From Clostridiales bacterium UBA5448 (GTDB lineage: Bacteria > Bacillota > Clostridia > Oscillospirales > SIG627), in contig DIRA01000027.1 in NCBI GenBank assembly GCA_002427425.1, positions 6,790 to 70,789 of the forward strand: 64,000 nt of DNA. The letters are read 5' to 3'. A program made the translations under genes and the position numbers. Positions 4,630-48,851 of this stretch are shown in pieces. Below the pieces are notes generated by a model that saw only the letters and a list, made by a program, of their open reading frames with translations, searched no databases and was not told the origin of the DNA. How positions within the stretch are numbered: position 1 is the stretch's first letter; the number at the start of each line of letters is the position of its first letter.

Positions 4630-6066
4630 TCAGGATGGAGCAAAGCGCAGCGTAAAAACGAACTCACAGAACTTTCCCGGTTCGGATAGAATGGTCAGGG
4701 TTTCTTCGTGTCGGTCTAAAATGGTTTTGACAATATACAATCCCAGCCCCAATCCGGATTTATCCAATCCCCGGGAACGGTCGGATTTGAACAAGCGCTC
4801 AAAAATTTGGGGTTTGTCTTCTTCGGAAATTCCTTCCCCGGTGTTGTACAGGGAGATCAGAGCGTGGTCCTTGGCGGATTTGATGGTTAATGACAGTGTT
4901 CCTTTCGGATGGGAAAACTTCACCGCGTTGTCGCACAAATTGTATATGACCTGATAGATATTGTCTTTGTTTGCCAATACCATCATTTTTTCTTTTTCAC
5001 AGTCAAATGATACATGCAATTCTTTTTCATTGATTTTATTTTCAAAGGAAAGGAGGATAATCCGAGCCATTTCGCAGACATCAAAGGAAGATTTTTGCGG
5101 CTTTCTGTCAGCGGCCTGCATTCGTGTAATCTCCAACAATGAATGGACCAGACGGGTCAAACGACGGGTTTCTTCGGCGACGACGGATAAATAATACGTG
5201 TATTTTTCCGGGGAGATGGATCCGTTCAACATCCCATCGATAAAGCCCGAGATGGAGGTCAGGGGAGTGCGAAGATCATGAGAGATATCCGAAATAAATC
5301 CGGCGGTCTTATTTTCGTTGTTTTGCAAGGCTTCTGCCATAGAGTTGAATGCAGTCGCCAATTCCACGATTTCCGACGAACCCGAAATGGGAACACGAAC
5401 GGAAAAATCTCCGCGTGCCAAGGCATTGGCTGCGGATTGCATGGAACGAAGCGGCGCGGTGAGTTTATCACTGATGAGATATACCGCCGCCAGAGAGGCC
5501 GCCAGCATCCATAAAACCGCAATGAGGATAGAACCGTACATATGGGTCATGATACCTTCCGCATAGCTGCGGGGAGAGGTGAGCACGATAAAGAATGTGT
5601 TGGCTCCCAATTCCATGCTTTTAACATAATTTAATCGAATATCGGAAAAAGCACCGCCTAAGCTATCATAGGTACAGCCGTTTTTATACGCATACAGGGT
5701 GGACAGTGAAAAATTGCCGGAAACCGAAAAATCATCCCAACCCTGGGTACCGATGAGGAGCTTTCCTTCCGGAGAAACGATCAGAACCGCGGCGGAAGAG
5801 GTACGGGCGTATTCATTTAAAATTTTGGTGGTCAAAAGCAGGGTCTCATTTTCACCGGCATCTCGATCCGATGGCATGGCACCGGTGAGTTCATACATAT
5901 ATCGGAGGGTTTTTTCCGAAAAATCAGCCGCATTCATCAAAGCCTGTTCCTGTTGGGAAGCAGCGTAATGAGAGACACGGGCAGCCATCATCATCGACAA
6001 TAGAGCCAGTGTGATGGACATGATGATTAGAAACGTGGTCATATAACGGAAAAAGATGGTTTTCAA
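4630..6066 (-). CDS. Sensor histidine kinase (two TM helices, extracytoplasmic loop, HAMP, HisKA, HATPase); CssS-like topology
   Basis: H-box SHDLRTPLTS, N-box YNLCDNAVKF, G-box GLGLGLYIVK. TTG start preceded by GGAGG. Confidence 0.85.
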   Translation of the reverse strand: MKTIFFRYMTTFLIIMSITLALLSMMMAARVSHYAASQQEQALMNAADFSEKTLRYMYELTGAMPSDRDAGENETLLLTTKILNEYARTSSAAVLIVSPEGKLLIGTQGWDDFSVSGNFSLSTLYAYKNGCTYDSLGGAFSDIRLNYVKSMELGANTFFIVLTSPRSYAEGIMTHMYGSILIAVLWMLAASLAAVYLISDKLTAPLRSMQSAANALARGDFSVRVPISGSSEIVELATAFNSMAEALQNNENKTAGFISDISHDLRTPLTSISGFIDGMLNGSISPEKYTYYLSVVAEETRRLTRLVHSLLEITRMQAADRKPQKSSFDVCEMARIILLSFENKINEKELHVSFDCEKEKMMVLANKDNIYQVIYNLCDNAVKFSHPKGTLSLTIKSAKDHALISLYNTGEGISEEDKPQIFERLFKSDRSRGLDKSGLGLGLYIVKTILDRHEETLTILSEPGKFCEFVFTLRFAPS

Positions 6067-6088
6067 GGGTTACCTCCGACCGATACCG

Positions 6089-6775
6089 TTACTCCAATAA
6101 TTCGAATTTATATCCAACGCCCCAGACGGTTTTCAGCGTCCAGTTATCGCTGATGCCTTCCAGTTTTTCTCGTAAGCGTTTGATGTGCACATCCACGGTT
6201 CTGGTATCGCCGGCATAATCAAAACTCCAGACTTTGTCCAGCAGTTGATCGCGGGTAAATACATGATTGTAATGGGAAGCCAGAAAATATAAAAGCTCCA
6301 ATTCCTTATGGGGAATATCCACGGATTTACCTTTCAGCTTCAGCTCGTGTTTCAACAGGCTGATTTCAATTTGATCAAAATGAATCAAATCGCTGTCTTC
6401 TTGGTTGTTCTGGTGGAAGGTGCGGCGGAGTACCGCTTTGATTCTTGCTAATACTTCTTTCATATCAAAGGGTTTCACAATAAAGTCGTCGGCACCCAAT
6501 TCAAGACCTAATACCTTATCAAATACATCGCTTTTGGCTGTAATCATGATGACGGGGATATTGGAGGATTCGCGGATTTCCCTGCAAACCTGCCAACCGT
6601 CTTTTTTGGGCAGCATGATATCCAATAGAATGATGTCCGGCTCATATATACGGCATGCCGTTAAGCCCACAGAACCTTCGTGAGCGATTTTCACTTCAAA
6701 CTTTTCGTTTTCAAGATAGATTTTCAGTGCTTCACAAATGTTTTGATCGTCATCGATGATAAGTATTTTCTGCAT
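6089..6775 (-). CDS. OmpR-family response regulator (CssR-like)
   Basis: MQKILIIDDD..., receiver Asp in ILLDIMLP, winged-helix C-terminus (TVWGVGYKF). The start is moved to the ATG at 6775, which has an upstream GAAAGGAA, rather than the ORF-track start at 6829. Confidence 0.85.
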   Translation of the reverse strand: MQKILIIDDDQNICEALKIYLENEKFEVKIAHEGSVGLTACRIYEPDIILLDIMLPKKDGWQVCREIRESSNIPVIMITAKSDVFDKVLGLELGADDFIVKPFDMKEVLARIKAVLRRTFHQNNQEDSDLIHFDQIEISLLKHELKLKGKSVDIPHKELELLYFLASHYNHVFTRDQLLDKVWSFDYAGDTRTVDVHIKRLREKLEGISDNWTLKTVWGVGYKFELLE

Positions 6776-7026
6776 ATTGCGGTTCCTTTCTCGAGAGGAT
6801 GAATTATATTCATAGTATATTATGAACAAAATTTTAATTTAGATTACAATTTTCATTAAAAACAGTATTATTTCTGTGAAAATCGGAATATATAGAAAAA
6901 AAGAATATACTTCTTTCATTCTTTGTTACCATTTTATTCACACAATTATAACATATATCATACAATTCGTCAAGGAAGTTAGGTGAATTTTGAGTGACGA
7001 TTGGTGACATATTTGCTCACAAACTC

Positions 7027-8232: not shown

Positions 8233-8391
8233 TCACGGGGTGGAATGAAATGTAAACATTGGAATAGGATTGAAAAGAGTGCATTTGTATCGGTGCATTT
8301 TTAATAGAAAAAAATCGAATGTAAGAATCTATTGTCATTATGAGTGTTATATGATATGATAGAACTATAAACGATGAGGGGGTGAAACGTA

Positions 8392-8829
8392 TTGACCTAT
8401 ACTTGGTTAGCTCTTGCGTTGCTTTTTATTTTTGTTGAATTTGTGACGCCCCAACTGGTTTCTATTTGGGTTTCCCTTGGCAGCTTCGCGGCATTGGTAA
8501 TATCCTTGCTTGGCGGTCCTGTTTGGCTGCAAGTGGGGTTATTCCTGGTGGTGTCGGTCATCGCCATATTAACCACCCGTTCCTTGTATCGAAAATATGT
8601 AAAACAGAAAGCAGTGCCCACCAATGCAGATGCGCTGATTGAAAAAACGGCCGTGGTACTGATTGAAATCAACAATTTAGAGGCAGTCGGGCAAGTGAAA
8701 GTCAACGGGCAAATCTGGAGCGCAAAGAGTATGACGGATCATATTATACCGGAAGGTTCTTTGGTTATTGTCAAAGAAATCGTGGGTGTGAAAATGATCG
8801 TGGAAGAAATCAAACAATCAAATATATAG
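8392..8829 (+). CDS. NfeD-family membrane protein
   Basis: Two or three N-terminal TM helices plus a C-terminal OB-like soluble domain (GQVKVNGQIWSAKS...LVIVKEIVGVKMIVEE). It lies immediately upstream of an SPFH gene, which is the classic pairing. TTG start with GAGGGGG as RBS. Confidence 0.75.
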   Translation: MTYTWLALALLFIFVEFVTPQLVSIWVSLGSFAALVISLLGGPVWLQVGLFLVVSVIAILTTRSLYRKYVKQKAVPTNADALIEKTAVVLIEINNLEAVGQVKVNGQIWSAKSMTDHIIPEGSLVIVKEIVGVKMIVEEIKQSNI

Positions 8830-8847
8830 GGAAGAGGGGTATTTTAC

Positions 8848-9774
8848 ATGGAGTTAATTTTTCTGATTTTGGGCGGTCTGCTGCTGATTTTGTTTATCAG
8901 TTGCGTGAAAATCATTCCCCAGGCTTACGCATCCATCATTGAACGGTTGGGAACGTATCATATGACCTGGCAAACGGGTATGCATGTAAAGGTTCCGTTT
9001 GTTGATAGAGTAGTCAATTTCATTTCTTTAAAAGAACAGGTGGTGGATTTTCCTCCCCAGCCCGTCATCACCAAAGACAACGTCACCATGCAGATTGATA
9101 CCGTTGTGTACTATCAGGTGACCGATCCGAAACTGTATACATACGGTGTGGAACGTCCGATTCAGGCCATTGAGGTGCTGGCGGCTACGACGTTGAGAAA
9201 TATTGTCGGCGAATTGGAATTGGATCAGACATTGACTTCTCGTGATTTGATCAACAGCCGGTTGCGTGTGATTTTGGATGATGCCACCGACCCCTGGGGC
9301 ATTAAAGTCAATCGTGTGGAATTGAAAAACATTCTACCTCCCAGCAGTATCCAGGAAGCCATGGAAAAACAGATGAAGGCGGAACGGGAACGCAGAGAGC
9401 AGATTTTGCGGGCGGAAGGGGAAAAGACATCTGCCATTCTGGTGGCGGAAGGTCAAAAAGAATCTTTGATTTTGACTGCGGAAGCGGAAAAACGTTCCTT
9501 GATCTTGCGGTCGGAAGCGGAAAAGGAAGCTGCCATTCGGAGAGCCGAAGGAGAAGCGGAATCCATTTTGAAGGTACAGGAAGCCACAGCCCAAGGGTTG
9601 ATGAAATTGAATGCAAGCAATCCTACATCCGCCGTGTTGATTTTGAAAAGCTATGAAGCCTTGAAAGAAGTGGCGGACGGGAAAGCTACCAAACTCATTA
9701 TTCCCTCCGATATGCAATCCATCGCCGGAATGGCCGCCTCGTTGAAAGAAATCATCACAACCAAAGACGCATAA
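8848..9774 (+). CDS. SPFH/band-7 (stomatin/QmcA-like) protein
   Basis: N-terminal TM helix, an SPFH core (IIERLGTYH...TKDNVTMQIDTVVYYQVTDP) and a Glu/Ala-rich coiled-coil tail. Confidence 0.85.
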   Translation: MELIFLILGGLLLILFISCVKIIPQAYASIIERLGTYHMTWQTGMHVKVPFVDRVVNFISLKEQVVDFPPQPVITKDNVTMQIDTVVYYQVTDPKLYTYGVERPIQAIEVLAATTLRNIVGELELDQTLTSRDLINSRLRVILDDATDPWGIKVNRVELKNILPPSSIQEAMEKQMKAERERREQILRAEGEKTSAILVAEGQKESLILTAEAEKRSLILRSEAEKEAAIRRAEGEAESILKVQEATAQGLMKLNASNPTSAVLILKSYEALKEVADGKATKLIIPSDMQSIAGMAASLKEIITTKDA

Positions 9775-9780
9775 TATAAG

Positions 9781-9810
9781 AAGACCTGCCGTGCGGCAGG
9801 TCTTCTTTCC
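9781..9810. terminator. Hairpin between convergent genes
   Basis: aagacctgcc-gtg-cggcaggtctt followed by CTTTCC. Confidence 0.65.
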
Positions 9811-38422: not shown

Positions 38423-38451
38423 TTGACAATTACTAAATTTCGTGATACAAT
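38423..38451 (+). promoter_or_regulatory. Near-consensus sigma-A promoter with extended -10
   Basis: TTGACA (38423-38428), 17 nt, TACAAT (38446-38451), with TG at 38443-38444. It lies about 27 nt upstream of an AAGGAGG RBS. Confidence 0.7.
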
Positions 38452-38477: not shown

Positions 38478-38678
38478 ATGAACGAAAACACAAATGTAAA
38501 ACGACAATTGCTCATATGCCTGAAGTCATTTATGGAGAAACTTGAGGAAGAGGAAGCGTTGCATGAAGATTTGAACTGGATCGTGGAGTCGTTGGAAGAA
38601 GAAGAAGTTGACAGCGGGTGGAGTTCTGCTTTGTATGACAATGAAAACTTTTATTCGGACGGAGTGTATAAAGAATGA
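38478..38678 (+). CDS. Small acidic hypothetical protein (66 aa)
   Basis: AAGGAGG lies 7 nt upstream. Glu/Asp-rich (EKLEEEEALHEDLNWIVESLEEEEVD). ATGA overlap with the next gene. Confidence 0.55.
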   Translation: MNENTNVKRQLLICLKSFMEKLEEEEALHEDLNWIVESLEEEEVDSGWSSALYDNENFYSDGVYKE

Positions 38679-39145
38679 TGGGGCGTAGATATTTAAAGGC
38701 CTATGTAAATGCTTTACGACAATTCGAAACAGATCGCCGACTTTTGGATAATTTAGAAAAGCATACATGCTGGCCCTATGGAAGAAGATTAAAAGGATTG
38801 CCGCAAAATGCCATCCGATCCAAGGAAATCCTCAAAAGAAGAATTCGCAGAACCGATTTGATCATCCGCCGATTTGGTGAAAAGATCGCGAAAGCTTTGG
38901 GACAGATGGAAGACAGGATCGGCTGCCAATACATCGAAATGCGATATTTGCAAGGATTGCCTATGGAGGAAATTGCCTACATTGTAGGGTACAGCGAGCG
39001 GCAACTGTATCGGCTGACCAGAAGCATGGAGCGGGATTTTTTGCGGCATTTGGCTGCAATTCCGGGTACGGTCCGTAGGAACGGAATAGCAAAAAGATAT
39101 ACATATGATAGCACAAAAGGAGAATTGTGTAAAGGAAATCACTGA
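38675..39145 (+). CDS. Sigma-70 region-4-like / phage late-gene-activator-like DNA-binding protein (DUF1492/ArpU/RinA-like class)
   Basis: The C-terminal half, IEMRYLQGLPMEEIAYIVGYSERQLYRLTRSMERDF, looks like a region 4.2 HTH. Size is 156 aa. It is located at the head of a phage-like island. Confidence 0.5.
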   Translation: MMGRRYLKAYVNALRQFETDRRLLDNLEKHTCWPYGRRLKGLPQNAIRSKEILKRRIRRTDLIIRRFGEKIAKALGQMEDRIGCQYIEMRYLQGLPMEEIAYIVGYSERQLYRLTRSMERDFLRHLAAIPGTVRRNGIAKRYTYDSTKGELCKGNH

Positions 39146-39207
39146 AAACCATTGGAAACCATCACTGAAAACCATTGGAAACCATCACTGAAAACCATTG
39201 GAAACCA
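39139..39207 (+). repeat. Three perfect tandem copies of a 23-bp unit, TCACTGAAAACCATTGGAAACCA
   Basis: Copies at 39139-39161, 39162-39184 and 39185-39207. Each unit holds two TGRAAACCAT half-sites, so there are six phased motifs with 10/13-nt spacing. The first copy contains the stop codon of the upstream gene. Confidence 0.95.
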
Positions 39208-39235
39208 TTTTAAAAAGTGGTTTCCTTCTTTTTTG
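39200..39235 (+). terminator. Rho-independent terminator built from the last repeat copy
   Basis: ggaaacca(tt)...(aa)tggtttcc stem followed by TTCTTTTTT. A further GGAAACCA lies at 39239-39246. Confidence 0.7.
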
Positions 39236-39316: not shown

Positions 39317-40861
39317 TCATTTCTCAGGGATGGACTGCTTGGGGACGGCGGTTTCGGCTTTCCATTTGTTGTAGTGGTACTTATACCAGTGCCGTATGTT
39401 GATATGCTCGAACCTCACTTTTTGATATGTCTTGCTTTGACCCTGGGCGTGGATATAGTTGTAGGGAAATTCGGGTACAACGATGGTCTTGGCGTTATTC
39501 TCAATCATGGCGTCAATATATGTATCCCGGTCTCTCACCAGTCCGTGAATGTTCAAAAATAATATTTGGATGCCCATGGCAGCAGCCAGGCAGAGAACGC
39601 TCAGTGGTCTGAAAACCTTTTTTGCTTCCACTTGTTTTACATCCAATATATAAGAAAACAAGGCGACGGCTGCCATGACCAGACACAAATAGGACAAAAA
39701 TATGCACCGCTGTCCGATGGGATTGACCAAAAGCAGGGGAGAGGCGAAAAACACCGAGGCAATCAGTGCCACCGAGGTGACGCCTTTCACCTTATTGTCC
39801 GGCAGGTTCAAACAGACAAACAGTGCGGCGATAAAATACAAAAAAGTGATGGCGAAGGTAAACAAGTATTGCAAAAAATATACCTTGGAAAACCAGGGGG
39901 AATCGTTGATACAGAACAGATAGATGCAAAAGGCGGGATAGAAATAGAAAATGCCTTCACAGACGACCAACAGTTTGCGAACCAGGGTGGGGGAAAGGTT
40001 GCCTATCTTTTCCTTTCGGATGGTTTTCATGGAAAACAGCAATACCACGCTTAACACGATAAACACCAGTACACAGCCGGCAAAGAGGGAACTGATTTTG
40101 AATGAATTGTATTCGATGGAGCTGATCATTTCTTTTAGGCTGCCGATATTCATTTTCTGGTAGGTTTCCCACAGCAGGCTGTTCGCCAGATGGTTGGGAA
40201 TTGCGTACATGAAAGCTGAACCTGCCAAAGATGCCAATGTATAAAGAATGGCCGGAATAAGACGGTGGCGGCTGTATATGGCGGCATACACCACCAGAAA
40301 AATCGCCACCATGATGTTTGCCACGGTGTTGACTTCGCTGAATAACTGCTGGGAAAACCCCAAAATCATACATACTAAACAGGCGTAGATACGGTAATAC
40401 CAACGGGAATCGGCGGTGTATTCCACATAGGTGTTGAGAATCCACAACAGGAAAAACACGGGGGGCACATAGTTGCAAAAACCGCTCGTCCAGGTAAAAA
40501 CTTGGGCAAACATGACCGAAGGCATCCCCAATACCAGCAAAAATACACTTCCGTGGACGCCTTTGTCATGGCCGGACAGGTGTTTGGTCAACTTGACCAA
40601 ACAATACACCGCGCCTGCCACAAACAAGGATTTCACGATGGTTCTCAACCACACATGGGGTAAAAGATAAAGCACCAATAAATTGCCAAATAATCGCCCG
40701 TTTCCGTACTGGATGCAGTAGGTCAGCCGCTCCTGAAAAGAAGCGAACGTCAGTGCTGAGAAAATGCAGTCATCGCTGGTATAAGGCGCCCAGTACATGA
40801 CGGGGATCATGACGGCAAAGGTAAAAACAAACAAAAACCAGGGAGCTTTCAGAATTTTCAT
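39317..40861 (-). CDS. Polytopic membrane protein, GT-C-fold glycosyltransferase-like (DUF6056 / GtrC-like class)
   Basis: 514 aa with more than 10 TM helices. N-terminal loop with YTSDDCIF and YGNGRLFGN. Soluble C-terminal tail. The function is not verifiable from sequence alone. Confidence 0.4.
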   Translation of the reverse strand: MKILKAPWFLFVFTFAVMIPVMYWAPYTSDDCIFSALTFASFQERLTYCIQYGNGRLFGNLLVLYLLPHVWLRTIVKSLFVAGAVYCLVKLTKHLSGHDKGVHGSVFLLVLGMPSVMFAQVFTWTSGFCNYVPPVFFLLWILNTYVEYTADSRWYYRIYACLVCMILGFSQQLFSEVNTVANIMVAIFLVVYAAIYSRHRLIPAILYTLASLAGSAFMYAIPNHLANSLLWETYQKMNIGSLKEMISSIEYNSFKISSLFAGCVLVFIVLSVVLLFSMKTIRKEKIGNLSPTLVRKLLVVCEGIFYFYPAFCIYLFCINDSPWFSKVYFLQYLFTFAITFLYFIAALFVCLNLPDNKVKGVTSVALIASVFFASPLLLVNPIGQRCIFLSYLCLVMAAVALFSYILDVKQVEAKKVFRPLSVLCLAAAMGIQILFLNIHGLVRDRDTYIDAMIENNAKTIVVPEFPYNYIHAQGQSKTYQKVRFEHINIRHWYKYHYNKWKAETAVPKQSIPEK

Positions 40862-41064
40862 GTTTTACGTTATCCTTTTGCTTAAAATACGCGCGGGTTC
40901 CTAGATAGTATACCATAGTATGTAATTAATTCAAGATGTCTTTTGCATTTATTTGGTTTTTCGCACAAGTGGATTTTCTGTCATTCAGTGTCAGACCTGA
41001 TGCGGGCTATAATCCTTTTGCCAAGATAAAAAGCCGGCTTTTCTTGGAAAAAAGGAGGGATTGC

Positions 41065-41241
41065 ATGTATATGTGTCTGCTGTTTTTGGCAGGAGGCGGT
41101 TTGGGATTGGTTCTGGGTCTGGGATGGCGTTATGTGTTCAAACGAGTTTCCCCCCGTTGTTCGAAATCGCCTCCTGTTTTTTCTCCTCGGGGTGCGGATC
41201 CCGGCGAGGGCGGATTTGAACAGATTCTCCGTTACCGTTAG
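41065..41241 (+). CDS. Small single-TM protein (58 aa) immediately upstream of the portal gene
   Basis: AAAAGGAGGG lies 5 nt upstream of ATG 41065. TM helix CLLFLAGGGLGLVLGLGW, followed by a basic, Pro-rich tail. Confidence 0.4.
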   Translation: MYMCLLFLAGGGLGLVLGLGWRYVFKRVSPRCSKSPPVFSPRGADPGEGGFEQILRYR

Positions 41242-41252
41242 AAAGGAACACC

Positions 41253-42806
41253 ATGAAAAAACAAGAAAGAAAAATTTGCCGGGACGACTGGCAGCTATTG
41301 GAAGAAGGTAAAAACTATAAACGTCAGATCGGACTCTATGAACTGGTGAAGCGCAACGAACGGTTCTATCGGGGGGATCAATGGCATGGGGTCAAATCCG
41401 GCGGTTTGCCCACCCCGGTGTTCAACGTGTTCAAACGGGTCATCAATCACTTCATTTCTACTCTGATGTCCCAGAAAATCTCTCTCCGTTATACTGCCGA
41501 AAGCTGCGACCTTCTCCACACCCCCGAAAAGCGCCGTCAGCTGGAAGAGGGGTGCGCCCTTTTGAGCCATTACATGAATTACCGCTTTGACCGGGACAGC
41601 ATGGAAAAACTCCTTTCCGACGGATTGCTTGACGCGGCACTTTCCGGCAACTGCTTTGCCTATGTGTACTGGGACCGGGATAAAATCGCTCCCAAAGGAT
41701 ACAGGGGGGATTTTGCCACCACCCTGATTGATGCGGTGAATGTGTTTTTCGGGGATGTGAACACCTCCGACATCGAAAGCCAACCTTATATCCTCATTGC
41801 CGGAAGAGAGCTGACAAACAACCTCATCCGGGAAGCCAAGGATAACGGGATGCATGAGGAAGAATGCCGCCGCATCACCCCCGACAGTGACAGCGCAGAG
41901 CAGGCGGGGGACTTCGGGGCGATTGAATTGCCCGGTACCAAATGCGCTTCCCTCATCAAGCTGTGGAAGGAAGGGGGAACGGTTTGGTATGAAAAATCCA
42001 CCCGATCCTGTGTCATCACACCGCCCACGGACACGGGCTTGAAACGCTATCCCATGACCGGCATGTGCTGGGACAATGTGAAAAACTCCTGTCACGGGGA
42101 AGCGGTCGCCACGGGGCTGTCGGAAAACCAGTTGTATATCAACAAAGCCTTTGCCATGGTCATGAAGCACATGCTGGATGTGTCCTTTTCCAAAGTGGTA
42201 TACAACGACACCATCATCGATGAATGGACCAACGCCATCGGGGAAGCCATTGCGGTTCACGGGGATGTGGAAGGGGCGGTGGAACGGATCGAGCCGGGTA
42301 CCCTTCAGTCGGGTTTTCTGGAACTGATCAACATGACCATGTCGGTGACCAAGGAACTGATGGGTGCCACCGACGCGGCACTGGGAAATGTGCAGCCGAT
42401 CAATACCTCCGCCATCATTGCGCTGCAAAACGCCTCCAATCTGCCTTTGGAAAATCAGAAACGATCCCTGTATCGCTTTATTGCAGATCTGGGAATGATC
42501 TGGCTGGACTATCTTTTTCACTATTACGGTGAAGGGAGAATTCTCTTTTACAAAGATAAAAGCGGAAAAATGGCGGGCTATTCCTTTGAAGGCAAAACGC
42601 TGTATGAGATGACCTTCTCCTGTTATGCCGAGGTAGGTCCTTCTTCGTATTGGAGTGAGATTACATCTGTCAATACCCTGGATTCCCTCTTGAAACGCGG
42701 ATTCATTACCCTGAAGCAATACCTGGAGCGCATCCCCGAAGGATACATTCCCGACAAAGACAAATTGCTGGAAGAAGCTGCTTCCGGAGAAAAGGAAACA
42801 CCATGA
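41253..42806 (+). CDS. Phage portal protein (P22/T7-class podovirus-like)
   Basis: 517 aa. The N-terminal NERFYRGDQW and C-terminal CYAEVGPSSYW resemble, from my memory of the P22 portal, its FFSRVSQW and CYTDVGPSF regions. It lies directly upstream of the scaffold-like and capsid genes. Confidence 0.7.
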   Translation: MKKQERKICRDDWQLLEEGKNYKRQIGLYELVKRNERFYRGDQWHGVKSGGLPTPVFNVFKRVINHFISTLMSQKISLRYTAESCDLLHTPEKRRQLEEGCALLSHYMNYRFDRDSMEKLLSDGLLDAALSGNCFAYVYWDRDKIAPKGYRGDFATTLIDAVNVFFGDVNTSDIESQPYILIAGRELTNNLIREAKDNGMHEEECRRITPDSDSAEQAGDFGAIELPGTKCASLIKLWKEGGTVWYEKSTRSCVITPPTDTGLKRYPMTGMCWDNVKNSCHGEAVATGLSENQLYINKAFAMVMKHMLDVSFSKVVYNDTIIDEWTNAIGEAIAVHGDVEGAVERIEPGTLQSGFLELINMTMSVTKELMGATDAALGNVQPINTSAIIALQNASNLPLENQKRSLYRFIADLGMIWLDYLFHYYGEGRILFYKDKSGKMAGYSFEGKTLYEMTFSCYAEVGPSSYWSEITSVNTLDSLLKRGFITLKQYLERIPEGYIPDKDKLLEEAASGEKETP

Positions 42807-43198
42807 ACGAAGAAAAAAAGGAAATACTGGAAGAAGAAAAAGCAACGCAAATAACGCCTGTACCCGAAGAAACTCCCGATGTGACCAAGGGGGAAATTGC
42901 AAAATTCCGGGCGTTGTTCGGGGATATTTCCCCGGATCACATTCCCGAAGATGTATGGGAAGAGGTGAAAGAGGGACAATCCCTCTGCGCTGTTTATGCC
43001 CTGCATCTGTATGAAAAGGCCGCCGAGGCCAGCAAAATTCGAGACATCAACGATAAAAACAAAAAAACCGCACCGGGCAGAATCACCACCGGCGGCGGAG
43101 AGGAATACTTCTCCCCCGAAGCGGTGAAAGCTATGGACGACAAAGCCGTCCGCAAACATTATGCCAAAATTATACGTTCCATGGAACACTGGAACTGA
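42803..43198 (+). CDS. Scaffolding-protein-like acidic helical protein
   Basis: 131 aa and Glu/Lys-rich. ATGA overlap with the portal gene. Its position between portal and capsid matches T7 gp9 and P22 gp8. Confidence 0.5.
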   Translation: MNEEKKEILEEEKATQITPVPEETPDVTKGEIAKFRALFGDISPDHIPEDVWEEVKEGQSLCAVYALHLYEKAAEASKIRDINDKNKKTAPGRITTGGGEEYFSPEAVKAMDDKAVRKHYAKIIRSMEHWN

Positions 43199-43215
43199 AG
43201 AAAGGAATTTGAACT

Positions 43216-44052
43216 ATGGCGATTACCAATTTTATTTCCAACGTCTGGAGCGAAACCCTCTATCAGGAACTCCACAAAAGCTATGTGGCCGTCAAGCTTT
43301 GCAACCGGGAATTTGAAGGGGAGATCAAAGGGGAGGGGGACCGTGTACACATTTGCGGTATCGGTCCCGTAACGGTGTTTGATTACACCAAAAACGCCAA
43401 TATGCCCACCGCCGAAGCCCTCACCGACAGTCTGCGTACCCTCATCATCAATCAGGCAAAAGGGTTCAACTTCTGCATCGACGATGTGGATCTTGCCCAA
43501 AGCAAAAAATCTCTGATGCAGGCAGCCATGAAAGAAGCCTCCAATGCTTTGGCGGATGTGGCGGATGCGTACATTTACTCCCTGACGGATGAAAAGGTAG
43601 GTTTTGTTACCAATGCCGCCGCGACCTCCGTCAATATCATCCATACCCTGGCACAGGCCAGAACCAAGCTGTTGGAAAACAACGTGCCCAACGCCGCTCG
43701 CATTTCTCTGGAAGTGCCTCCCGCCATCGAGCAGAAGTTGGTGCTTGCCAAAGTCCTCCGTTCCACCGACAACCACGAGGACTTGGGTAGAGGTTATATC
43801 GGTTCGCTTTTGGGCTTTGATGTATATGTGACCAACAATATCACCGCCGATGCAAACGATAGCTATCGCTGTGTTGCCAGAACCGATCGTGCCATCGCCT
43901 TTGCCGAACAAATCAATTCCGTGAAGGCCTATGAGCCCGAACTGCGCCATGGGGATGCGGTGAAAGGTCTCCATCTGTACGGTGCCAAGATCGTATACCC
44001 CAAAGAAATGGTGTATCTGAATCTGACACCCGCAGACGAATCCACGCTTTAA
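43216..44052 (+). CDS. HK97-fold major capsid protein (T7 gp10 / P22-coat-like class)
   Basis: 278 aa. The N-arm pattern NFISNVWSETLYQEL...EGEIKGEGDRVHI and the spine-helix-like LMQAAMKEASNALADVADAYIY parallel the T7 gp10 layout. No protease gene is present, which fits scaffold-dependent assembly. Confidence 0.65.
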   Translation: MAITNFISNVWSETLYQELHKSYVAVKLCNREFEGEIKGEGDRVHICGIGPVTVFDYTKNANMPTAEALTDSLRTLIINQAKGFNFCIDDVDLAQSKKSLMQAAMKEASNALADVADAYIYSLTDEKVGFVTNAAATSVNIIHTLAQARTKLLENNVPNAARISLEVPPAIEQKLVLAKVLRSTDNHEDLGRGYIGSLLGFDVYVTNNITADANDSYRCVARTDRAIAFAEQINSVKAYEPELRHGDAVKGLHLYGAKIVYPKEMVYLNLTPADESTL

Positions 44053-44065
44053 ATCCAATGTTGCC

Positions 44066-44084
44066 GGGGCGGTTTTACCGCCCC
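44066..44084 (+). promoter_or_regulatory. GC-rich intercistronic hairpin just after the capsid gene (no T-run)
   Basis: ggggcggt-ttt-accgcccc. A GGAGGG RBS for the next gene follows. Confidence 0.5.
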
Positions 44085-44097
44085 CAGGAGGGAAAGA

Positions 44098-44502
44098 ATG
44101 TTTGACTTTTATTTTCGGGGCGTGCCGGGGAAAAAGCTCATCGATGCGGATACGGGGCGATATTTGGGGTCTTTTGACGCCAGCGGATATGTTTCCGCCG
44201 CCACGTTGGCCCATTCCTGCGCTACCCCTTTGATCAACCGTGCTTTGAATAGTATGGATGTATATTATCCCGTCCATGTGACGGTGTGGAATTCCAGCAC
44301 CAAACCCATCCCCAATGCATGGATTTCCAAAGACGGGGCCGAAGTGAACAAAACCGATGCCTGTGGCTGCGCCACCCTCATTTTACCCCAGGGTGTATAT
44401 ACCCTGACGGTGGGGGGAGAGGGGTTTGAAGACGAAACCGGGGAAGTGACCGTCAATCAGTCCGCGGTCCACGCTACGTTTACCTTATCGGCGGAAACGT
44501 AA
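44098..44502 (+). CDS. Virion-module protein with C-terminal beta-sandwich (carboxypeptidase-regulatory-like) domain; possible decoration or tail accessory
   Basis: 134 aa. VHVTVWNSSTKPIPNAWISKDGAEVNKTDACGCATLILPQGVYTLTVGGEGF matches the usual CarboxypepD_reg-like pattern. Confidence 0.4.
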   Translation: MFDFYFRGVPGKKLIDADTGRYLGSFDASGYVSAATLAHSCATPLINRALNSMDVYYPVHVTVWNSSTKPIPNAWISKDGAEVNKTDACGCATLILPQGVYTLTVGGEGFEDETGEVTVNQSAVHATFTLSAET

Positions 44503-44505
44503 GCC

Positions 44506-44904
44506 ATGAAGGCACTGGACGTATTCAATCTGGCATTGGCGGTGCTCCAGGAAAGCGGGGAAGATCGTAATTATAACGCTTCCACCTACGCGGAATCGAC
44601 GCCAGCGTTGCTGAATCTGCTTCTGGGGATGCTGGACGAAGCCGACTGCATCATCAAGGGAAAAAACCTGCCCTTTGACGGAGGGCGGATCCCATATATC
44701 AGTGATTTGAATTCCACTCTCACCCTCCATGACTCCCTGTCCCGTGTTTGTCTGCCTTTGGGGCTTGCTTCCATGTTGATCGCCGGTGATCAGCCTGTGC
44801 TTTCCAACACCCTGTGGGTCAAATACCTGCAGGAAAAAGAGGCCGCCGTGGCACGATACCGGAAGGGGAAGCGGCATATCACGCGGGATGTGTATTTTTC
44901 CTAA
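44506..44904 (+). CDS. Hypothetical virion-module protein (positional equivalent of a head-tail adaptor / T7 gp11)
   Basis: 132 aa. It starts 4 nt after the preceding stop codon. The assignment is positional only. Confidence 0.3.
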   Translation: MKALDVFNLALAVLQESGEDRNYNASTYAESTPALLNLLLGMLDEADCIIKGKNLPFDGGRIPYISDLNSTLTLHDSLSRVCLPLGLASMLIAGDQPVLSNTLWVKYLQEKEAAVARYRKGKRHITRDVYFS

Positions 44905-44916
44905 GGAGGATAGGAG

Positions 44917-46674
44917 ATGAACCGTGAAAAAAAGTTTACCTTGACTTTGGATACCTTTCTGGGCCTGCGGGAATCGGGGGATGAAGGGGCGGAATTGAAA
45001 ATCGGGGGAAGCCCCCGGATGGAAAACTTCCTCATCACCGAAGGATACAAGCTAAAAAAAAGGGCAGGGTACAGAATTCTCTGTACCCTGCCGGGAAAGG
45101 TCCATGCCTTATGGAACGGGTATCTGGAAGGAAGGCATTATTTCTTCGCCGCCGCTGGAGAGAACATGTATCTTATCCAAAATCAAACCTATGAATTGGT
45201 GGGGGATATCAATGCCGGGGGAAAAATCACTTTCACACCTTTCGGAGGGAAATTGTACGTTGCAGACGGGGAACGTTTGCAGGTCTATGATACCGATGCG
45301 GGGTGTTTTTTTCCCCCGCAATATTACCGCCCCCTGTTTTCAGTGGCAACGCCTCCCTCCGGCGGCGGTACGTTTCTGGAAAGCCTGAATCTCTTGACCG
45401 GTGCCACCGCCCAACGGTTTTCCCCGGACGGGGTGTCGGACACCTTTGTTCTAGCGGCAAAAAATCTGGAATCGGTAGATTATGTGATGGTGGGGGGCAC
45501 TTCTCTATATCGCCATGAATTTCAAGCCGATATTGTGAGGGGCACGGTAAAGTTGAACACCGTACCAGCGAAGGGGATTGACAGTGTGGATATCGGGTAT
45601 ACCCGCCGCCAAAACATCAGCAACATTGACGGCTGCCGGTTTGTTTTGCCTTTCGGGGGGGACAACGATACCCGGCTTTTTACCTGGGGCAACGAGGCGT
45701 ATCCCTCCCATCTCTGGTGGTCGGGAATTCCAACCCACGGCAACGGGCTGTATTTTCCCGCTGACTGTTTCAATACCATCGGCAACGGAGACCCCATCAC
45801 CTCCTTGACCCGTCATTATGACCGGCTTCTGGTGTTCACCCGCTCTGCCTCCTATTATCTTTACGCTTCCCAAAAAACCGACGACATGGGTATTCAATAC
45901 ACCTCTTTTCCGGTGTTCACTTTATCCCCCGACCGGGGCAGCCTGATGGAAGGACCGGGGATACTCATGGACAACCAACCTTTATCCGTGGGGGAAAGCG
46001 GACTGTACCGCTGGGTATCCACCTATCAGCGGGATGAGCGGAACGCGGTGTTGTTTTCCCGGCGTGCCTGTGAAACCCTGGGGAAAGCCGATTTGTCCAA
46101 TGCCGGATTTTTTGACCGGGAATCCAAAGGAGAATTGTGGTGCGTTCTGGACGACCGGATTCTCATTTACCATTATCGCCTGGATGTGTTTTATCTGTAT
46201 AAAGGATTTTTGCCCACCGCCTTTGCCGAGATGGACAAAACCCTGTATTTTGGTATGGAAAACGGGATGGTTTGTTTGTACGGGGATATGTTTACCGACA
46301 ACAATACCCCCATTATAGCCGTGTGGGAATCCACCTATCTGGATTTCGGATATCCCCATCTGAGGAAAAATGTGGACAGGTGCGATATCCTCCTCCGGGC
46401 GGAAAGCAAGACGAACGCCCATATTACTTGGATCACCGACAAGGATACGGGAGAAGGAGACAATCCCATTGCTTTAAACGGGGGATTGTTCGATTTTGCC
46501 AGAATGGATTTTGCTGCCCTGCGGATGGATACTACCTTGAACAATCTTCGTTTTACCCGTCGGATCGGGGCAAAACGAATCAACGTTTTTAAACTTCGCC
46601 TCCAGAATCAGCATGCGGACAGTTCCTTGCGGCTGCTGTCACTGGTTCTGGGCGGCACATTACTATGTAAATGA
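44917..46674 (+). CDS. Tail nozzle / tail tubular protein B-like protein
   Basis: 585 aa and rich in beta-strand. N-terminal FLGLRESGD...MENFLITEGYKLKKRAGY parallels T7 gp12 (GGISQQPD...NGW...GLQKRP). The gene position also matches gp12. Low-level similarity only. Confidence 0.45.
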   Translation: MNREKKFTLTLDTFLGLRESGDEGAELKIGGSPRMENFLITEGYKLKKRAGYRILCTLPGKVHALWNGYLEGRHYFFAAAGENMYLIQNQTYELVGDINAGGKITFTPFGGKLYVADGERLQVYDTDAGCFFPPQYYRPLFSVATPPSGGGTFLESLNLLTGATAQRFSPDGVSDTFVLAAKNLESVDYVMVGGTSLYRHEFQADIVRGTVKLNTVPAKGIDSVDIGYTRRQNISNIDGCRFVLPFGGDNDTRLFTWGNEAYPSHLWWSGIPTHGNGLYFPADCFNTIGNGDPITSLTRHYDRLLVFTRSASYYLYASQKTDDMGIQYTSFPVFTLSPDRGSLMEGPGILMDNQPLSVGESGLYRWVSTYQRDERNAVLFSRRACETLGKADLSNAGFFDRESKGELWCVLDDRILIYHYRLDVFYLYKGFLPTAFAEMDKTLYFGMENGMVCLYGDMFTDNNTPIIAVWESTYLDFGYPHLRKNVDRCDILLRAESKTNAHITWITDKDTGEGDNPIALNGGLFDFARMDFAALRMDTTLNNLRFTRRIGAKRINVFKLRLQNQHADSSLRLLSLVLGGTLLCK

Positions 46675-46682
46675 GGTGAACC

Positions 46683-47726
46683 ATGGCTGATTTTACCAAA
46701 CTGACACAAAACCTGGCTCATGTGTCGGCACTGCCCGACCGCCCCTCCATTGCCGAGGGATATACGCCCGAACAATTGAAAAATAAGTTTGACCAAAGCG
46801 GTCTGGATATTCAAACGTATCTCAATATGGTACTGATTCCCCAGCTCCAGTCTACCATTCCCGGGGAATCCGCCAGCGAAAAAATCGGTTCCCGTTCCAT
46901 TGCGGGGGTCACGGGGAATACCCTGTATGCCCAGATGTCCCACATTGCCCACATGATCGGGGATGCGGTGGCAGGCACCATTCCAGACAGTACCATTACG
47001 CTACAAAAACTATCTCCCACCCTGAAAGCACGTTTTGAGCAAATGTCTTTGAATACCATGGTATATACTACCCCGGGCAACCATTCTTTTTTGGTTCCTC
47101 GTACCGGATATTATCATGTGACTCTTTGTGGAGGAGGGGCGGCAGGGTCTATGTATGCCCTGGATCAGGATGTGTTTTCTACCACCCACTATGGGTATGG
47201 CGGTGCGTCGGGTGCGTACCTGGAATCTTCTCTCTTTCTGGAAGAAGGGGACAGCGTGTCCCTGACGGTGGGGGCAGGGGGGGCGGTGAAGCTGCCAAGC
47301 GAAATCAACGCTACTTTTTCCGGCAGTGTGATAGTGTCTTATTCTGCACCCGGGGGCAATACCATCTTCGGAAGTCTGATTGCCATGGGAGGATGCAACT
47401 ATGCCCCCGAACGACCGGAAGCGGAGGTGCAGGGAGAAAAATATCTATTTTGCCGCAACGGCAAATCCCAACCGGGGACGGGGAGCGTCCATGACGGCCT
47501 GGACAGCATGCTGGGCAACGGTTCACGTCGAATTGCCGGCACCCAGTCGGGGATTCTTACCTATTCGGCGGGGATCGGAGCAGGGGGATGTGGTTTTGTT
47601 TACACCGACGATACCTCCAACAAAGCTTCCGTACCCTTGGAAAACCGGATGTATTACCTGAACCGGGGTTGCACCGCCGGAGGTAGCGGAATGGTGAAGA
47701 TTCAATACATGAATGTGATAGAATAG
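46683..47726 (+). CDS. Tail fibre / receptor-binding protein with C-terminal glycine-rich domain
   Basis: The N-terminus (LPDRPSIAEGYTPEQLKNKFDQSGLDIQTYLNMVLIPQL...IGSRSIAGVTGNTLYAQM) is typical of Firmicutes phage fibre N-termini. The C-terminus is VTLCGGGAAGS...YGGASGAY...VGAGGA. Confidence 0.55.
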   Translation: MADFTKLTQNLAHVSALPDRPSIAEGYTPEQLKNKFDQSGLDIQTYLNMVLIPQLQSTIPGESASEKIGSRSIAGVTGNTLYAQMSHIAHMIGDAVAGTIPDSTITLQKLSPTLKARFEQMSLNTMVYTTPGNHSFLVPRTGYYHVTLCGGGAAGSMYALDQDVFSTTHYGYGGASGAYLESSLFLEEGDSVSLTVGAGGAVKLPSEINATFSGSVIVSYSAPGGNTIFGSLIAMGGCNYAPERPEAEVQGEKYLFCRNGKSQPGTGSVHDGLDSMLGNGSRRIAGTQSGILTYSAGIGAGGCGFVYTDDTSNKASVPLENRMYYLNRGCTAGGSGMVKIQYMNVIE

Positions 47727-47739
47727 GGGGATACTGAAT

Positions 47740-48510
47740 ATGGCAAAAAGCATTGCGGAAAAACTCAAAGAAGAACTGACCAAAGCCAACGATACCCTCT
47801 ATGCCCGGTATGACAGCATCATAAACGATACCCGGTTAAAAAAAGACGAAAACCTGGTGCGGATCGACGGCAGATATCATGATAATATGAATCAGGCATC
47901 CGCCGACAGCTCCATCCGTGCTGCCAATGTCAAGCGGGCGTTGGAAGAACAGGGACTGGGGAATTCGGGAGAAGCTGCCCAGACTGAAACCTTACATAAT
48001 TTAGGGCTGCAAAACACCATGACCCAACTGGAACGGGGCAAGGAACAGGAAAAACGTCAGGTGGAATCCGACACCGCCGCCGCCATTGCCGAACTGGAAG
48101 CAAAACGGGACAAGGATTACGCTGAGAATCAAATCAAAATTGCCAAGGAAGTGGCATCCCAGCAAAGCACAGACCGCAATTATGCCGCTTCCCAGGCAGC
48201 CAAAGCTTCCAAAGGTTCATCTTCTGCATCCGACGGATACCAACCCTACGCGGGAATTTTGGGTGCATTGAACAAATCCGGCTTCCAGTATCCTTCCATC
48301 AATAAAGGGAAACCTATCACACCCGGTTTGTCGGCCGATGAACTGCTGAACAACATCATCAATCAGCATATTACCAACGACTGGAACGGAGTCAACGTGG
48401 ACAAAGAAGCAGTCGGTACAGCCATCAAAGCGTTTTTAAAAGATACGTCTGTTTCGGAATCCTATCGGGCCGAAATGCGGGTCTTGGCCATCGCGATGGG
48501 GTATTTGTAA
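47740..48510 (+). CDS. Coiled-coil virion-module protein (possible internal/ejection or fibre-assembly protein)
   Basis: 256 aa. N-terminal 150 aa are strongly helical and charged, followed by a Ser/Ala-rich linker and a globular C-terminus. It is the last gene of the block. Confidence 0.35.
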   Translation: MAKSIAEKLKEELTKANDTLYARYDSIINDTRLKKDENLVRIDGRYHDNMNQASADSSIRAANVKRALEEQGLGNSGEAAQTETLHNLGLQNTMTQLERGKEQEKRQVESDTAAAIAELEAKRDKDYAENQIKIAKEVASQQSTDRNYAASQAAKASKGSSSASDGYQPYAGILGALNKSGFQYPSINKGKPITPGLSADELLNNIINQHITNDWNGVNVDKEAVGTAIKAFLKDTSVSESYRAEMRVLAIAMGYL

Positions 48511-48520
48511 TCATTATTAA

Positions 48521-48558
48521 AGCCATGAAAATACCGCAGCTGCGGTGTTTTCATGGCT
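48521..48558 (+). terminator. 19-bp inverted repeat ending the virion block (hairpin; weak T-tract)
   Basis: agccatgaaaataccgcag/ctgcggtgttttcatggct with one G-U pair. It starts 11 nt after the stop codon at 48510. Confidence 0.5.
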
Positions 48559-48851
48559 ATATCATGGTTTCGGTACCTGCCGCCATACATACAAGAGCCT
48601 CCCGTACGGGATTTATATTTTTCAATAGGGGACCATTGGTTCTCGTTTTTTTGGGAATAATAGGAAATGATCATGGTCTGCATATTCATTAAGGCATCTT
48701 CCCGATGTTCTTTCAGCAGCGTCTGTTTTTTCTTCCCGGTTAAAATCACAACGATTTAAATCCATTTGATGTTAGATAAACAACACTGTGTTTTTTATAA
48801 ATTATACATAGAAATAACTGGGTTGTTTAGGGCGGAGGGGGCGCGGGGAAT

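Follow-up and report, generated by a model that had tools for sequence, protein, structure and literature searches.

A podovirus-type virion operon without a linked terminase, maintained in gut Clostridia, and its candidate late activator

Introduction

A virion operon of Clostridiales bacterium UBA5448 raises the question of how bacterial chromosomes can retain the head of a tailed phage that has no packaging motor of its own. The stretch analysed here, called the window throughout, comprises 64,000 nt of contig DIRA01000027.1 (6,790–70,789), and all positions given below are those of the window. A preliminary description of this stretch had left three readings of the operon side by side, namely a recently decayed prophage, a domesticated particle system and a helper-dependent element.

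Judged from the sequence, the region from 38.4 to 48.6 kb is best explained as a "viriform" fixed in the chromosome, with one locus for regulation and one for structural proteins, which would descend from a Pagevirus-like podovirus. Since the operon is intact, is under strong selection and is accompanied by an on-switch, we regard it as domesticated and not as a dying prophage. The reading that we favour, to which we give about an even chance, is a multi-locus particle system resembling gene transfer agents (GTAs), in which packaging and lysis functions would be encoded at unlinked host loci, host DNA would be packaged and the particles would be released by lysis.

The virion operon

Eight virion genes, all on the + strand, are tightly packed at 41253–48510 and encode proteins of 517, 131, 278, 134, 132, 585, 347 and 256 amino acids (aa) in this order, according to the listing of open reading frames (ORFs). 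There is a single ATGA overlap at 42803–42806, the remaining intergenic gaps are 3–45 nt, and a purine-rich ribosome-binding site (RBS) precedes each virion gene; in all these points the preliminary description was accurate. A ninth small ORF at 41066–41241, upstream of the portal gene, forms the start of the operon, and a terminator scan placed a terminator-like hairpin at its end (48628–48644, +).

Assignment to a podovirus-type virion module is supported by the portal, the capsid, a 585-aa structural protein (p585) and the fibre, and the remaining genes are attributed to it provisionally. The 517-aa portal protein (41253–42806, +) matches PF16510 P22_portal (2e-13) and phrog_156 (1.6e-29), and an AlphaFold2 model built on 30 homologs (pLDDT 64.9, pTM 0.62) has as its best Foldseek matches in PDB the podophage portals of Pan3, SU10, P22, N4 and T7. 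Its best match in an isolated phage is the Pagevirus portal (31% identity), and its mean column identity over the 30 homologs is 65%. The 278-aa major capsid protein (43216–44052, +) is of the HK97-fold family (PF25209 Phage_capsid_4, 2.5e-13; phrog_267 major head protein, 1.5e-44) and is 40–42% identical to the capsids of phages D6E, AP45 and phiCP34O. For p585 (44917–46674, +), a nozzle or tail-hub candidate, the evidence consists of phrog_3287 (virion structural protein) and of an alignment to a Pagevirus virion structural protein, its sole isolated-phage match, which covers 95% of p585 at 27–28% identity. The glycine-rich 347-aa tail fibre (46683–47726, +) is recognized by tail-fibre PHROGs only (phrog_863 and phrog_14469, 8e-8 and 1e-6).

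A P22-type portal, an HK97-fold capsid and short-tail proteins, as in virion modules of the P22, SU10 and Pagevirus type, are thus found together, and the ORF listing of the module includes no tape measure, sheath or long-tail gene. The gene order had been likened to that of T7, and this holds loosely; the nearest isolated phages are Pagevirus, in which the terminase precedes the portal, as it does in the sister clade described below.

The window was reported to carry no terminase, integrase, replication or lysis gene, and our searches agree: Pfam annotation of every other sizeable ORF of the 64 kb gave housekeeping genes only, apart from a 648-aa ORF within a sugar operon, for which Pfam had no match, and terminases of Page, of contig L002 and of the sister clade gave zero tblastn matches in the window. 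No tRNA, no Rfam match and no pac-like feature was found in the window, NCBIfam names none of the operon proteins, and none of these proteins has a conserved ATPase motif, a lone Walker-A-like string in the portal aside. The absence of convincing direct repeats flanking the module was likewise confirmed by a repeat search. The only bracket-like repeat around the operon is an imperfect 17-nt pair (15/17; CTGTTTTTTCTCCTCGG and CTGTTTTTTCTTCCCGG) at 41174–41190 and 48723–48739, spaced by 7549 nt, which was considered as an att site and judged to be due to chance. Two antisense ORFs, at 41295–42902 (−, 535 aa) and 43159–44277 (−, 372 aa), were discarded as shadow ORFs; relatives have them too, only because they lie opposite the conserved genes for portal and capsid.

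A terminase-free clade

When one genome per GTDB species was scanned with the portal, relatives were found in 336 species, and the best 80 of the 336 loci were compared and split by tblastn and ORF clustering into two groups, clade A and clade B. Portal homologs number in the thousands; more than 100 of them have 51–79% identity and lengths of 514–554 aa, and the contigs carrying these closest ones are chromosomal, up to 465 kb, and come from metagenome-assembled genomes (MAGs) of Clostridia/Oscillospiraceae.

Clade A consists of the window and loci L010–L050, i.e. at least 41 species-level genomes of gut Clostridia/Oscillospiraceae. Compared with the window, its portals are 54–79% and its capsids 58–87% (mostly 62–78%) identical. 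The portal, scaffold, capsid, 132-aa and 585-aa proteins form its core, the fibre is variable, the 256-aa protein is usually present, and two gene orders occur. By tblastn, a terminase within 10 kb of the portal was found in none of the 41 loci.

Clade B consists of the 39 loci L051–L089. TerL is found in all 39 and TerS in 33, immediately upstream of the portal, and since TerL is present at every clade B locus, the ancestor is taken to have packaged DNA. Clade B portals are 48–52% and capsids 29–35% identical to those of the window; the scaffold, 132-aa, 585-aa and 256-aa families are kept in the same order, in clusters of ~10 kb with additional small downstream genes. On a neighbour-joining portal tree clade A is monophyletic, with 45 leaves, including three fragments from IMG/VR, and zero terminase-positive members. 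From IMG/VR came no complete phage of clade A or B, but just 19 short fragments.

The capsids of the two clades differ far more sharply (29–35% identity) than their portals (~50%), and the window capsid is nearer to those of the siphophages D6E and phiCP34O. This discontinuity in the sequences suggests that the capsid gene may have been replaced, or may have undergone a burst of change, when clade A arose or when the terminase was lost.

Selection and long residence in the host

The ratio of nonsynonymous to synonymous substitution rates (dN/dS) was calculated for seven core genes from clade A pairs with unsaturated dS (0.5–1.0). It is 0.05–0.06 for the portal, 0.04 for the capsid, 0.06–0.13 for the scaffold, 0.15 for the 132-aa protein, 0.11–0.12 for p585, 0.08 for the 256-aa protein and 0.12–0.17 for the fibre. 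Between the window and its closest relative L010 the values are 0.08–0.23 with saturated dS, and at this distance (79% portal identity) every module gene is still present in L010. The GC content of the module follows that of its flanks (r = 0.89 in 32 species, range 0.40–0.58) with a small constant excess, which amounts to ~5 points in the window, and within subgroups the flanking host genes are shared, by 14 species in one case and 11 in another.

At a single clade A locus, L026, the portal alone survives (8265–9791), with no scaffold, capsid or tail gene in the 10 kb downstream and a low local GC content. Because L026 keeps nothing but the portal, decay is possible, but it is rare.

The late promoter and its other copies

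Ahead of the operon lies a predicted activator-dependent late promoter (40979–41013, +), in which TGTCA repeats flank a weak −35 element (TGTCATTCAGTGTCAG) and are followed after 13 nt by the −10 hexamer TATAAT (41008–41013). The signature aTGTCATTGnnTGTCAG-N13-TAnnnT is shared by clade A: in 39 of the 41 loci, together with the window, the first gene is preceded at 60–300 nt by aTGTCATTGnnTG(T/G)CAG, a spacing of 12–13 nt and TAnnnT. The TTGnnT between the TGTCA repeats serves as −35, 18 nt from the −10. The window copy is the only exact TGTCAN5TGTCA near the module, and in the subgroup with the second gene order three or four TGTCAG repeats occur with 11-bp periodicity.

Clade B does not have the TGTCA element. 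Its own promoter, ~100–250 nt upstream of TerS, is composed of two to four (A/C)GGGA(T/C) direct repeats (GGGAT/GGGAC), CGGGATGAA at the −35 and TAnnAT ~17 nt further on; being distinct, it implies a different dedicated activator.

The clade A motif is common as a late promoter in phage contigs, a scan of IMG/VR giving at least 120 matches. Among the matches listed, it sits after the stop codon of a ~140-aa gene whose product has a sigma-r4-like C-terminus, and it precedes late operons that begin with HNH-TerS-TerL or portal-scaffold-capsid.

Other explanations of the element were considered and rejected. Q-like antitermination does not fit, since the hairpin in the window leader is no better than in shuffled sequences (z = 0.42) and the leaders of most clade A loci do not have the length for one; phage copies of the TGTCA promoter do have hairpins downstream. 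The consensus sequences of Spo0A, LytTR and alternative sporulation sigma promoters are unlike the motif, and its −10 is sigma-A-like.

In the window an OmpR-family response regulator and a histidine kinase form a pair at 4630–6829 (−), ~35 kb from the module. OmpR-type sites are typically direct repeats spaced by 11 bp, and nothing ties the pair to the TGTCA promoter.

In relatives the same promoter stands ahead of lysis and receptor-binding genes. A second copy in L009/L010 is followed by genes for a BppU-like 481-aa protein, a 234-aa protein, a transmembrane (TM) coiled-coil protein, a holin-like protein and Amidase_3; a copy in L014 is followed by genes for TM-coiled-coil and holin-like proteins; and a copy in L231 by genes for holin-like, TM-coiled-coil and BppU-like proteins, the first of which we take to be similar to LL-H-family holins. 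Copies in L032 and L254 lead into genes for small winged-helix or DnaD-like proteins. A narrower promoter scan of metagenomes gave 37 matches, including one portal operon and one operon for holin and receptor-binding protein (RBP), and no terminase was found downstream of any of the 37. As far as the sequences allow a judgement, it is best supported that the lysis/fibre operons of the relatives and the virion operon would belong to one regulon of a multi-locus system.

In one metagenome (JAEIGA01; L239, L241, L245, L247, L249, L252, L257) the TGTCA promoter is followed by a leader with a hairpin (GAGCCGAC...ATCGGCTC AAAGGCTCT) and, ~700 nt past the leader, by a conserved 50-aa ORF (MTIKELKKII...DGRxHLIxSxLE), with no virion genes near.

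The candidate activator

The window was said to hold no integrase, repressor or replication gene. To call it free of regulators would not be quite accurate, since two kilobases upstream of the operon there is a gene for a phage-type late transcriptional activator, here called p156 (38675–39145, +), together with a small partner gene (38478–38678, +). By HMM and PHROG searches, p156 has a sigma-70 region-4-like helix-turn-helix (HTH) and resembles the Ltr/RinA class: it gives weak matches to Sigma70_r4/ECF HTH domains and matches phrog_36 (8.6e-7) and phrog_248 "transcriptional activator" (1.1e-5). When a hidden Markov model (HMM) of 21 promoter-adjacent phage regulators from IMG/VR was run against all ORFs of the window and of loci L001–L089, p156, in the window and in its copy L003, was the only protein matched (E 1.9e-6). 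No match was found to curated RinA/ArpU models or to any isolated phage, and only four homologs exist among 5.8 billion proteins, with 64–71% identity. In its sequence p156 appears to combine what characterizes an Ltr-type activator, i.e. a size of ~140 aa, a sigma-r4-like HTH and a gene upstream of a late promoter.

The late promoter is 1.8 kb downstream of the p156 gene. A host membrane gene had been taken as the left boundary of the module; it is present as a glycosyltransferase-family membrane protein gene (GT_STM0557_N, 39317–40861, −), and it sits between the p156 gene and the operon promoter. In the MAG carrying the closest module (GCA_045536965.1; L009/L010) the p156 ortholog (71% identity) is on a contig separate from the module and has retained both its MatE/AP-endonuclease/MTHFR context and the regulator promoter. 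Since the ortholog is unlinked and synteny is kept, the regulator gene can be regarded as a stable resident of the host and the system as one of several loci.

The regulator operon is preceded by a sigma-A-type promoter (38423–38451, +; TTGACA-17-TACAAT with a TG-extended −10, 11/12 matches), which is kept at the sister-genome locus L229 as CTTGACAATTACTAwATTTCGTGATAyAAT. Its first gene encodes a small acidic protein, a possible modulator, of 66 aa from the ATG at 38478 (a 78-aa ORF from the GTG at 38442), which is also called as 66 aa in L003. Orthologs of 63 aa in L229 and 62 aa in L230 are each encoded directly 5' of the activator ortholog, and the acidic protein has no family match. Over the p156 stop codon there are three perfect 23-nt tandem repeats (ATCACTGAAAACCATTGGAAACC; 39138–39208, +; Tandem Repeats Finder period 23, 3.1 copies, 100% matches), the last unit being part of a terminator-like hairpin at 39200–39225; the repeats are possibly a protein- or RNA-binding array.

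Remaining proteins of the operon

Whereas the names portal, capsid and fibre in the preliminary description, and that of structural protein for p585, are upheld by profiles and, for the portal, by Foldseek, the labels scaffold, adaptor, nozzle and coiled-coil follow from position, composition or weak profile matches and are used here as putative ones. The 131-, 132- and 256-aa proteins have no family annotation, and no usable match among PDB sequences came from profiles of the p585, 132-aa and portal families; a single-sequence AlphaFold2 model of p585 was uninformative as well (pLDDT 31.6).

The first gene encodes a 58-aa membrane protein (41066–41241, +) with a TM helix, an AGGAGG RBS, an ATG start and the C-terminus GGFEQILRYR. 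It has no family match, and equivalents directly 5' of the portal gene in nine loci (L010, L023, L029, L037, L038, L041, L047, L048, L050) end, for example, in GGFWEIIRYR or FWQNIISYDH. The 131-aa product (42803–43198, +), with 21% acidic residues and a gene between those of portal and capsid, is a probable scaffolding protein, and its family is represented at 77 of the 81 loci that make up the two clades. The 134-aa protein (44098–44502, +) has Ig-like matches slightly under the Pfam cut-offs (CarboxypepD_reg PF13620, 2.3e-7; Fn3_arc, 5.4e-6); it is lineage-specific, being found in the window and L010 only, and may be a capsid decoration or head fibre.

The 132-aa protein (44506–44904, +) is a probable head-to-tail adaptor by position and a weak profile match. 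Its gene is always directly 5' of the p585 gene in both gene orders, and the p585 family occurs in 68 loci of both clades. The fibre family is found in 20 clade A loci, and the L009 ortholog has the domain PF21722 Gly_rich_2. The last protein, of 256 aa (47740–48510, +), is a putative coiled-coil protein and possibly an internal/ejection or needle protein; its family occurs in 63 loci and has an invariant G..SGE motif. In L032 (16704–17816) its homolog has grown to 370 aa by ~10 acidic tandem units of ~15 aa (ERDDEKYDRFADNRDYxA), which suggests a length-variable segment, ruler-like or disordered.

Proposed mechanism and its alternatives

In the proposed mechanism, the sigma-A-type promoter would drive the acidic protein and p156, a retained activator of the Ltr class, and p156 would act on the TGTCA repeats flanking the −35 at 40979–41013, as is suggested by the pairing of motif and regulator in phages. 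The 7.6-kb operon thus turned on would supply the membrane protein, portal, scaffold, capsid, Ig-like decoration, adaptor, tail hub, fibre and coiled-coil protein, which may assemble into a small short-tailed particle. The operon would be one locus of several, the TerS-TerL pair having apparently been lost from the clade A locus and the holin, endolysin and receptor-binding operons lying elsewhere under the same promoter in related genomes. Packaging would be carried out by a terminase encoded elsewhere, with host DNA as the probable cargo.

The idea of a domesticated GTA-like system, already raised in the preliminary description, emerges as the best supported one, with the unlinked activator in the sister genome and the shared promoter of the lysis/fibre operons as its main evidence. 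Two properties of GTAs are found, i.e. a chromosomal phage-derived structural cluster without replication or integration genes and its vertical maintenance under purifying selection; a third, an own terminase for packaging host DNA, was not found in the window, in the ±10 kb of the loci or under the promoter copies.

Several points weigh against the GTA-like reading. No terminase is encoded in the 64-kb window, within ±10 kb in the 41 loci or downstream of the 37 promoter copies, and "encoded elsewhere" is an assumption. The window itself has no lysis genes, and it contains no gene for any of the proteins found in the lysis and receptor-binding operons of relatives. The cognate activator is found only in the window and the sister genome, and within 10 kb it is missing from the other 40 loci. 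Since the promoter type is common to many phages, trans-activation by a phage is equally possible. Finally, kinship to the GTA of Faecalibacterium prausnitzii (FpGTA) would rest on description and not on direct protein homology, and activation, particle formation and packaging are read from the genes of uncultured organisms.

It is possible, though we would hold this only tentatively, that the operon is instead a terminase-less capsid factory, kept under a generic phage late promoter and fired by a phage or by its own activator, whose capsids are loaded by a foreign motor or stay free of DNA; this would constitute a new class of domesticated virus. If so, foreign loading would make it a chromosomal "capsid pirate", by which infections would be converted into host-DNA transfer or phage packaging would be aborted.

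One such reading, which we consider rather unlikely, is that of a helper-phage-dependent module, in which the late activator of an infecting or induced phage fires the operon and the phage terminase fills the small capsids, no host terminase being involved; the outcome would be transducing particles with host DNA or sabotage of phage packaging. It draws on the TGTCA promoter being a common phage late promoter (at least 120 IMG/VR matches) located between regulator genes and late operons, on the 40 of 41 loci of relatives without a cognate activator within 10 kb, on the lack of a terminase in any clade A locus or under the promoter copies in host context, and on the replacement in clade A of the clade B promoter type by a phage-typical one. 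Interference or piracy at the level of the capsid also has precedents in the satellites PICI (phage-inducible chromosomal island), P4 and PLE. However, the window and the sister genome keep an activator of their own, which lies at a stable locus of the host behind a strong and conserved sigma-A promoter, and the lysis and receptor-binding operons that relatives have in the same regulon would be needless for a mere decoy. No candidate helper was identified, and an integrase, a replication module and a pac-like feature are absent from the window. For the earlier suggestion of a helper-dependent element, the widespread phage late promoter adds some plausibility, and the hallmarks of satellites (integrase, replication, mobility) are missing.

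A DNA-free particle, i.e. empty or protein-filled tailed capsids used for bacteriocin-like killing, protein delivery or surface/adhesion functions, is improbable. It would agree with the clade-wide absence of TerS-TerL near the portal combined with purifying selection on the structural genes, with a capsid so unlike that of the sister clade (29–35% against ~50% for the portal) as to hint at a changed capsid, and with operon proteins that have no conserved ATPase motif. Against this, no other large protein is as well conserved as the portal (65% mean column identity), which fits a working translocation channel, and the operon contains no cargo-loading or toxin gene. No derivative of a tailed phage is known to employ a head with a portal and yet not to package, and a podovirus tail normally attaches after packaging, as in the assembly of P22 and T7.

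That the operon is a decaying, non-functional structural leftover of a recent prophage, as was first thought possible, is very hard to maintain: the ~5-point GC excess in the window and the portal-only locus L026 would fit it, but the module is monophyletic in at least 41 species, its gene set is intact in ~40 of them with dN/dS of 0.04–0.17, its promoter is conserved, its GC content has been ameliorated to each host, synteny is kept in subgroups, L010 retains all genes despite saturated dS, and the marks of cryptic prophages (relaxed selection, pseudogenes, strain-specific presence) are lacking, decay being seen in L026 only.

Significance

According to a recent report, capsid-mediated mobilisation of DNA among Ruminococcaceae and Oscillospiraceae of the human gut most often takes the form of GTA-like packaging of host DNA, most taxa being without a known cluster, and such packaging was found in Oscillospiraceae taxa of this kind, including Pelethomonas (PMC12946183; bioRxiv 10.64898/2026.07.08.737213). 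Clade A could fill this gap of missing GTA loci, and its promoter, activator and accessory operons provide a search model. Prophage detectors based on terminases would miss or discard the module, and the terminase-less family defined here had not been described before; it is large, with at least 41 species within the best 80 of the 336 species hits. The module is real and looks functional, we take it to be a GTA-like viriform, and its oddity is that a whole clade is without a linked terminase; should the terminase prove to be missing altogether or to be borrowed, this would be a new bacterial exploitation of phage parts.

Comparison with known systems

FpGTA of F. prausnitzii is a podovirus-like GTA encoded in two operons 125 kb apart, with ~40-nm heads and a cargo of 8.4–8.9 kb; operon I begins with TerS-TerL, and operon II encodes fibre/RBP, holin and endolysin (Borodovich et al., Nat Commun 2026, PMC12946183). 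Its portal and capsid have the accessions RCH50851.1 and RCH50849.1 (CP030777, 2536737–2546346). Compared by description, clade A resembles it as a chromosomal podovirus-like cluster of gut Clostridia with portal, scaffold, HK97-type capsid and short-tail proteins, without replication or integration genes and near-ubiquitous in its host lineage, and the separate fibre/RBP-holin-endolysin operon is here seen in the relatives L009, L014 and L231. In contrast, TerS-TerL of FpGTA operon I have no counterpart in clade A, and a defined pair of late promoter and activator is present in clade A, whereas promoter and regulator of FpGTA have not been described. The FpGTA-like contig L002, whose origin from Faecalibacterium is not established, is 29% (portal) and 40% (capsid) identical to the window. 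Clade B has an FpGTA-like layout and the same kind of hosts, and differs from clade A in TerS-TerL, promoter type and its distant capsid.

Bacillus megaterium phages of the genus Pagevirus (Page, Pascal, Pony and others) have portal, scaffold, capsid, small proteins and tail in the same order as the window. They differ in that each is an entire phage of 40 kb, in which TerS-TerL precede the portal and genes for lysis and replication are present, and by local tblastn no Pagevirus match to the window capsid was found.

RcGTA, which stands for the multi-locus GTAs of Alphaproteobacteria, is siphovirus-like, has TerS-TerL in its main cluster and is controlled by the two-component and quorum-sensing systems of its host. 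It is comparable as a domesticated, vertically inherited head-tail cluster with accessory loci elsewhere, apparent regulation at the host level and, as presumed for the module, release by lysis, but it is unrelated in sequence to the module, and the window has a retained phage late activator instead.

Capsid-forming PICIs (cf-PICIs) carry integrase, replication and TerS genes and borrow their tails. Like them, the module is a small element with its own capsid and portal that takes other functions from elsewhere; unlike them, it has tail genes and shows vertical inheritance in place of mobility, and the integrase, replication module and TerS expected of phage satellites (PICI/cf-PICI) were not found in the window.

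Members of the Ltr superfamily (RinA, ArpU, DUF1492 and others) activate late genes in phages of Gram-positive hosts, and their own genes lie immediately ahead of the late promoter from which terS/terL/portal are read (PMC3753634). The small size of p156 and its C-terminal sigma-r4-like HTH agree with this family (Quiles-Puchalt et al. 2013, PMC3753634), whereas a host gene (or another contig) between p156 and its presumed promoter and an operon without terminase set it apart.

A rearranged related cluster is found in a cultured organism, Acidaminobacterium chupaoyuni (CP176394.1, 1919491–1941200; L268), in the order TerL, scaffold, capsid, host PanK and ECF-transporter genes, SU10-type adaptor, p585 homolog and fibres, followed by a portal-like 569-aa protein, holin and Amidase_2. 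The p585 protein aligns by hhalign over its full length with a 616-aa protein of this cluster (E 6e-43), and the 132-aa protein gives a weak hhalign match (59%, E 9e-5) to its SU10_adaptor-family protein, by which the A. chupaoyuni locus lends weak support to the putative adaptor role. In its gene content the A. chupaoyuni cluster looks like another domesticated particle system, and it may become a laboratory model for systems of this kind.

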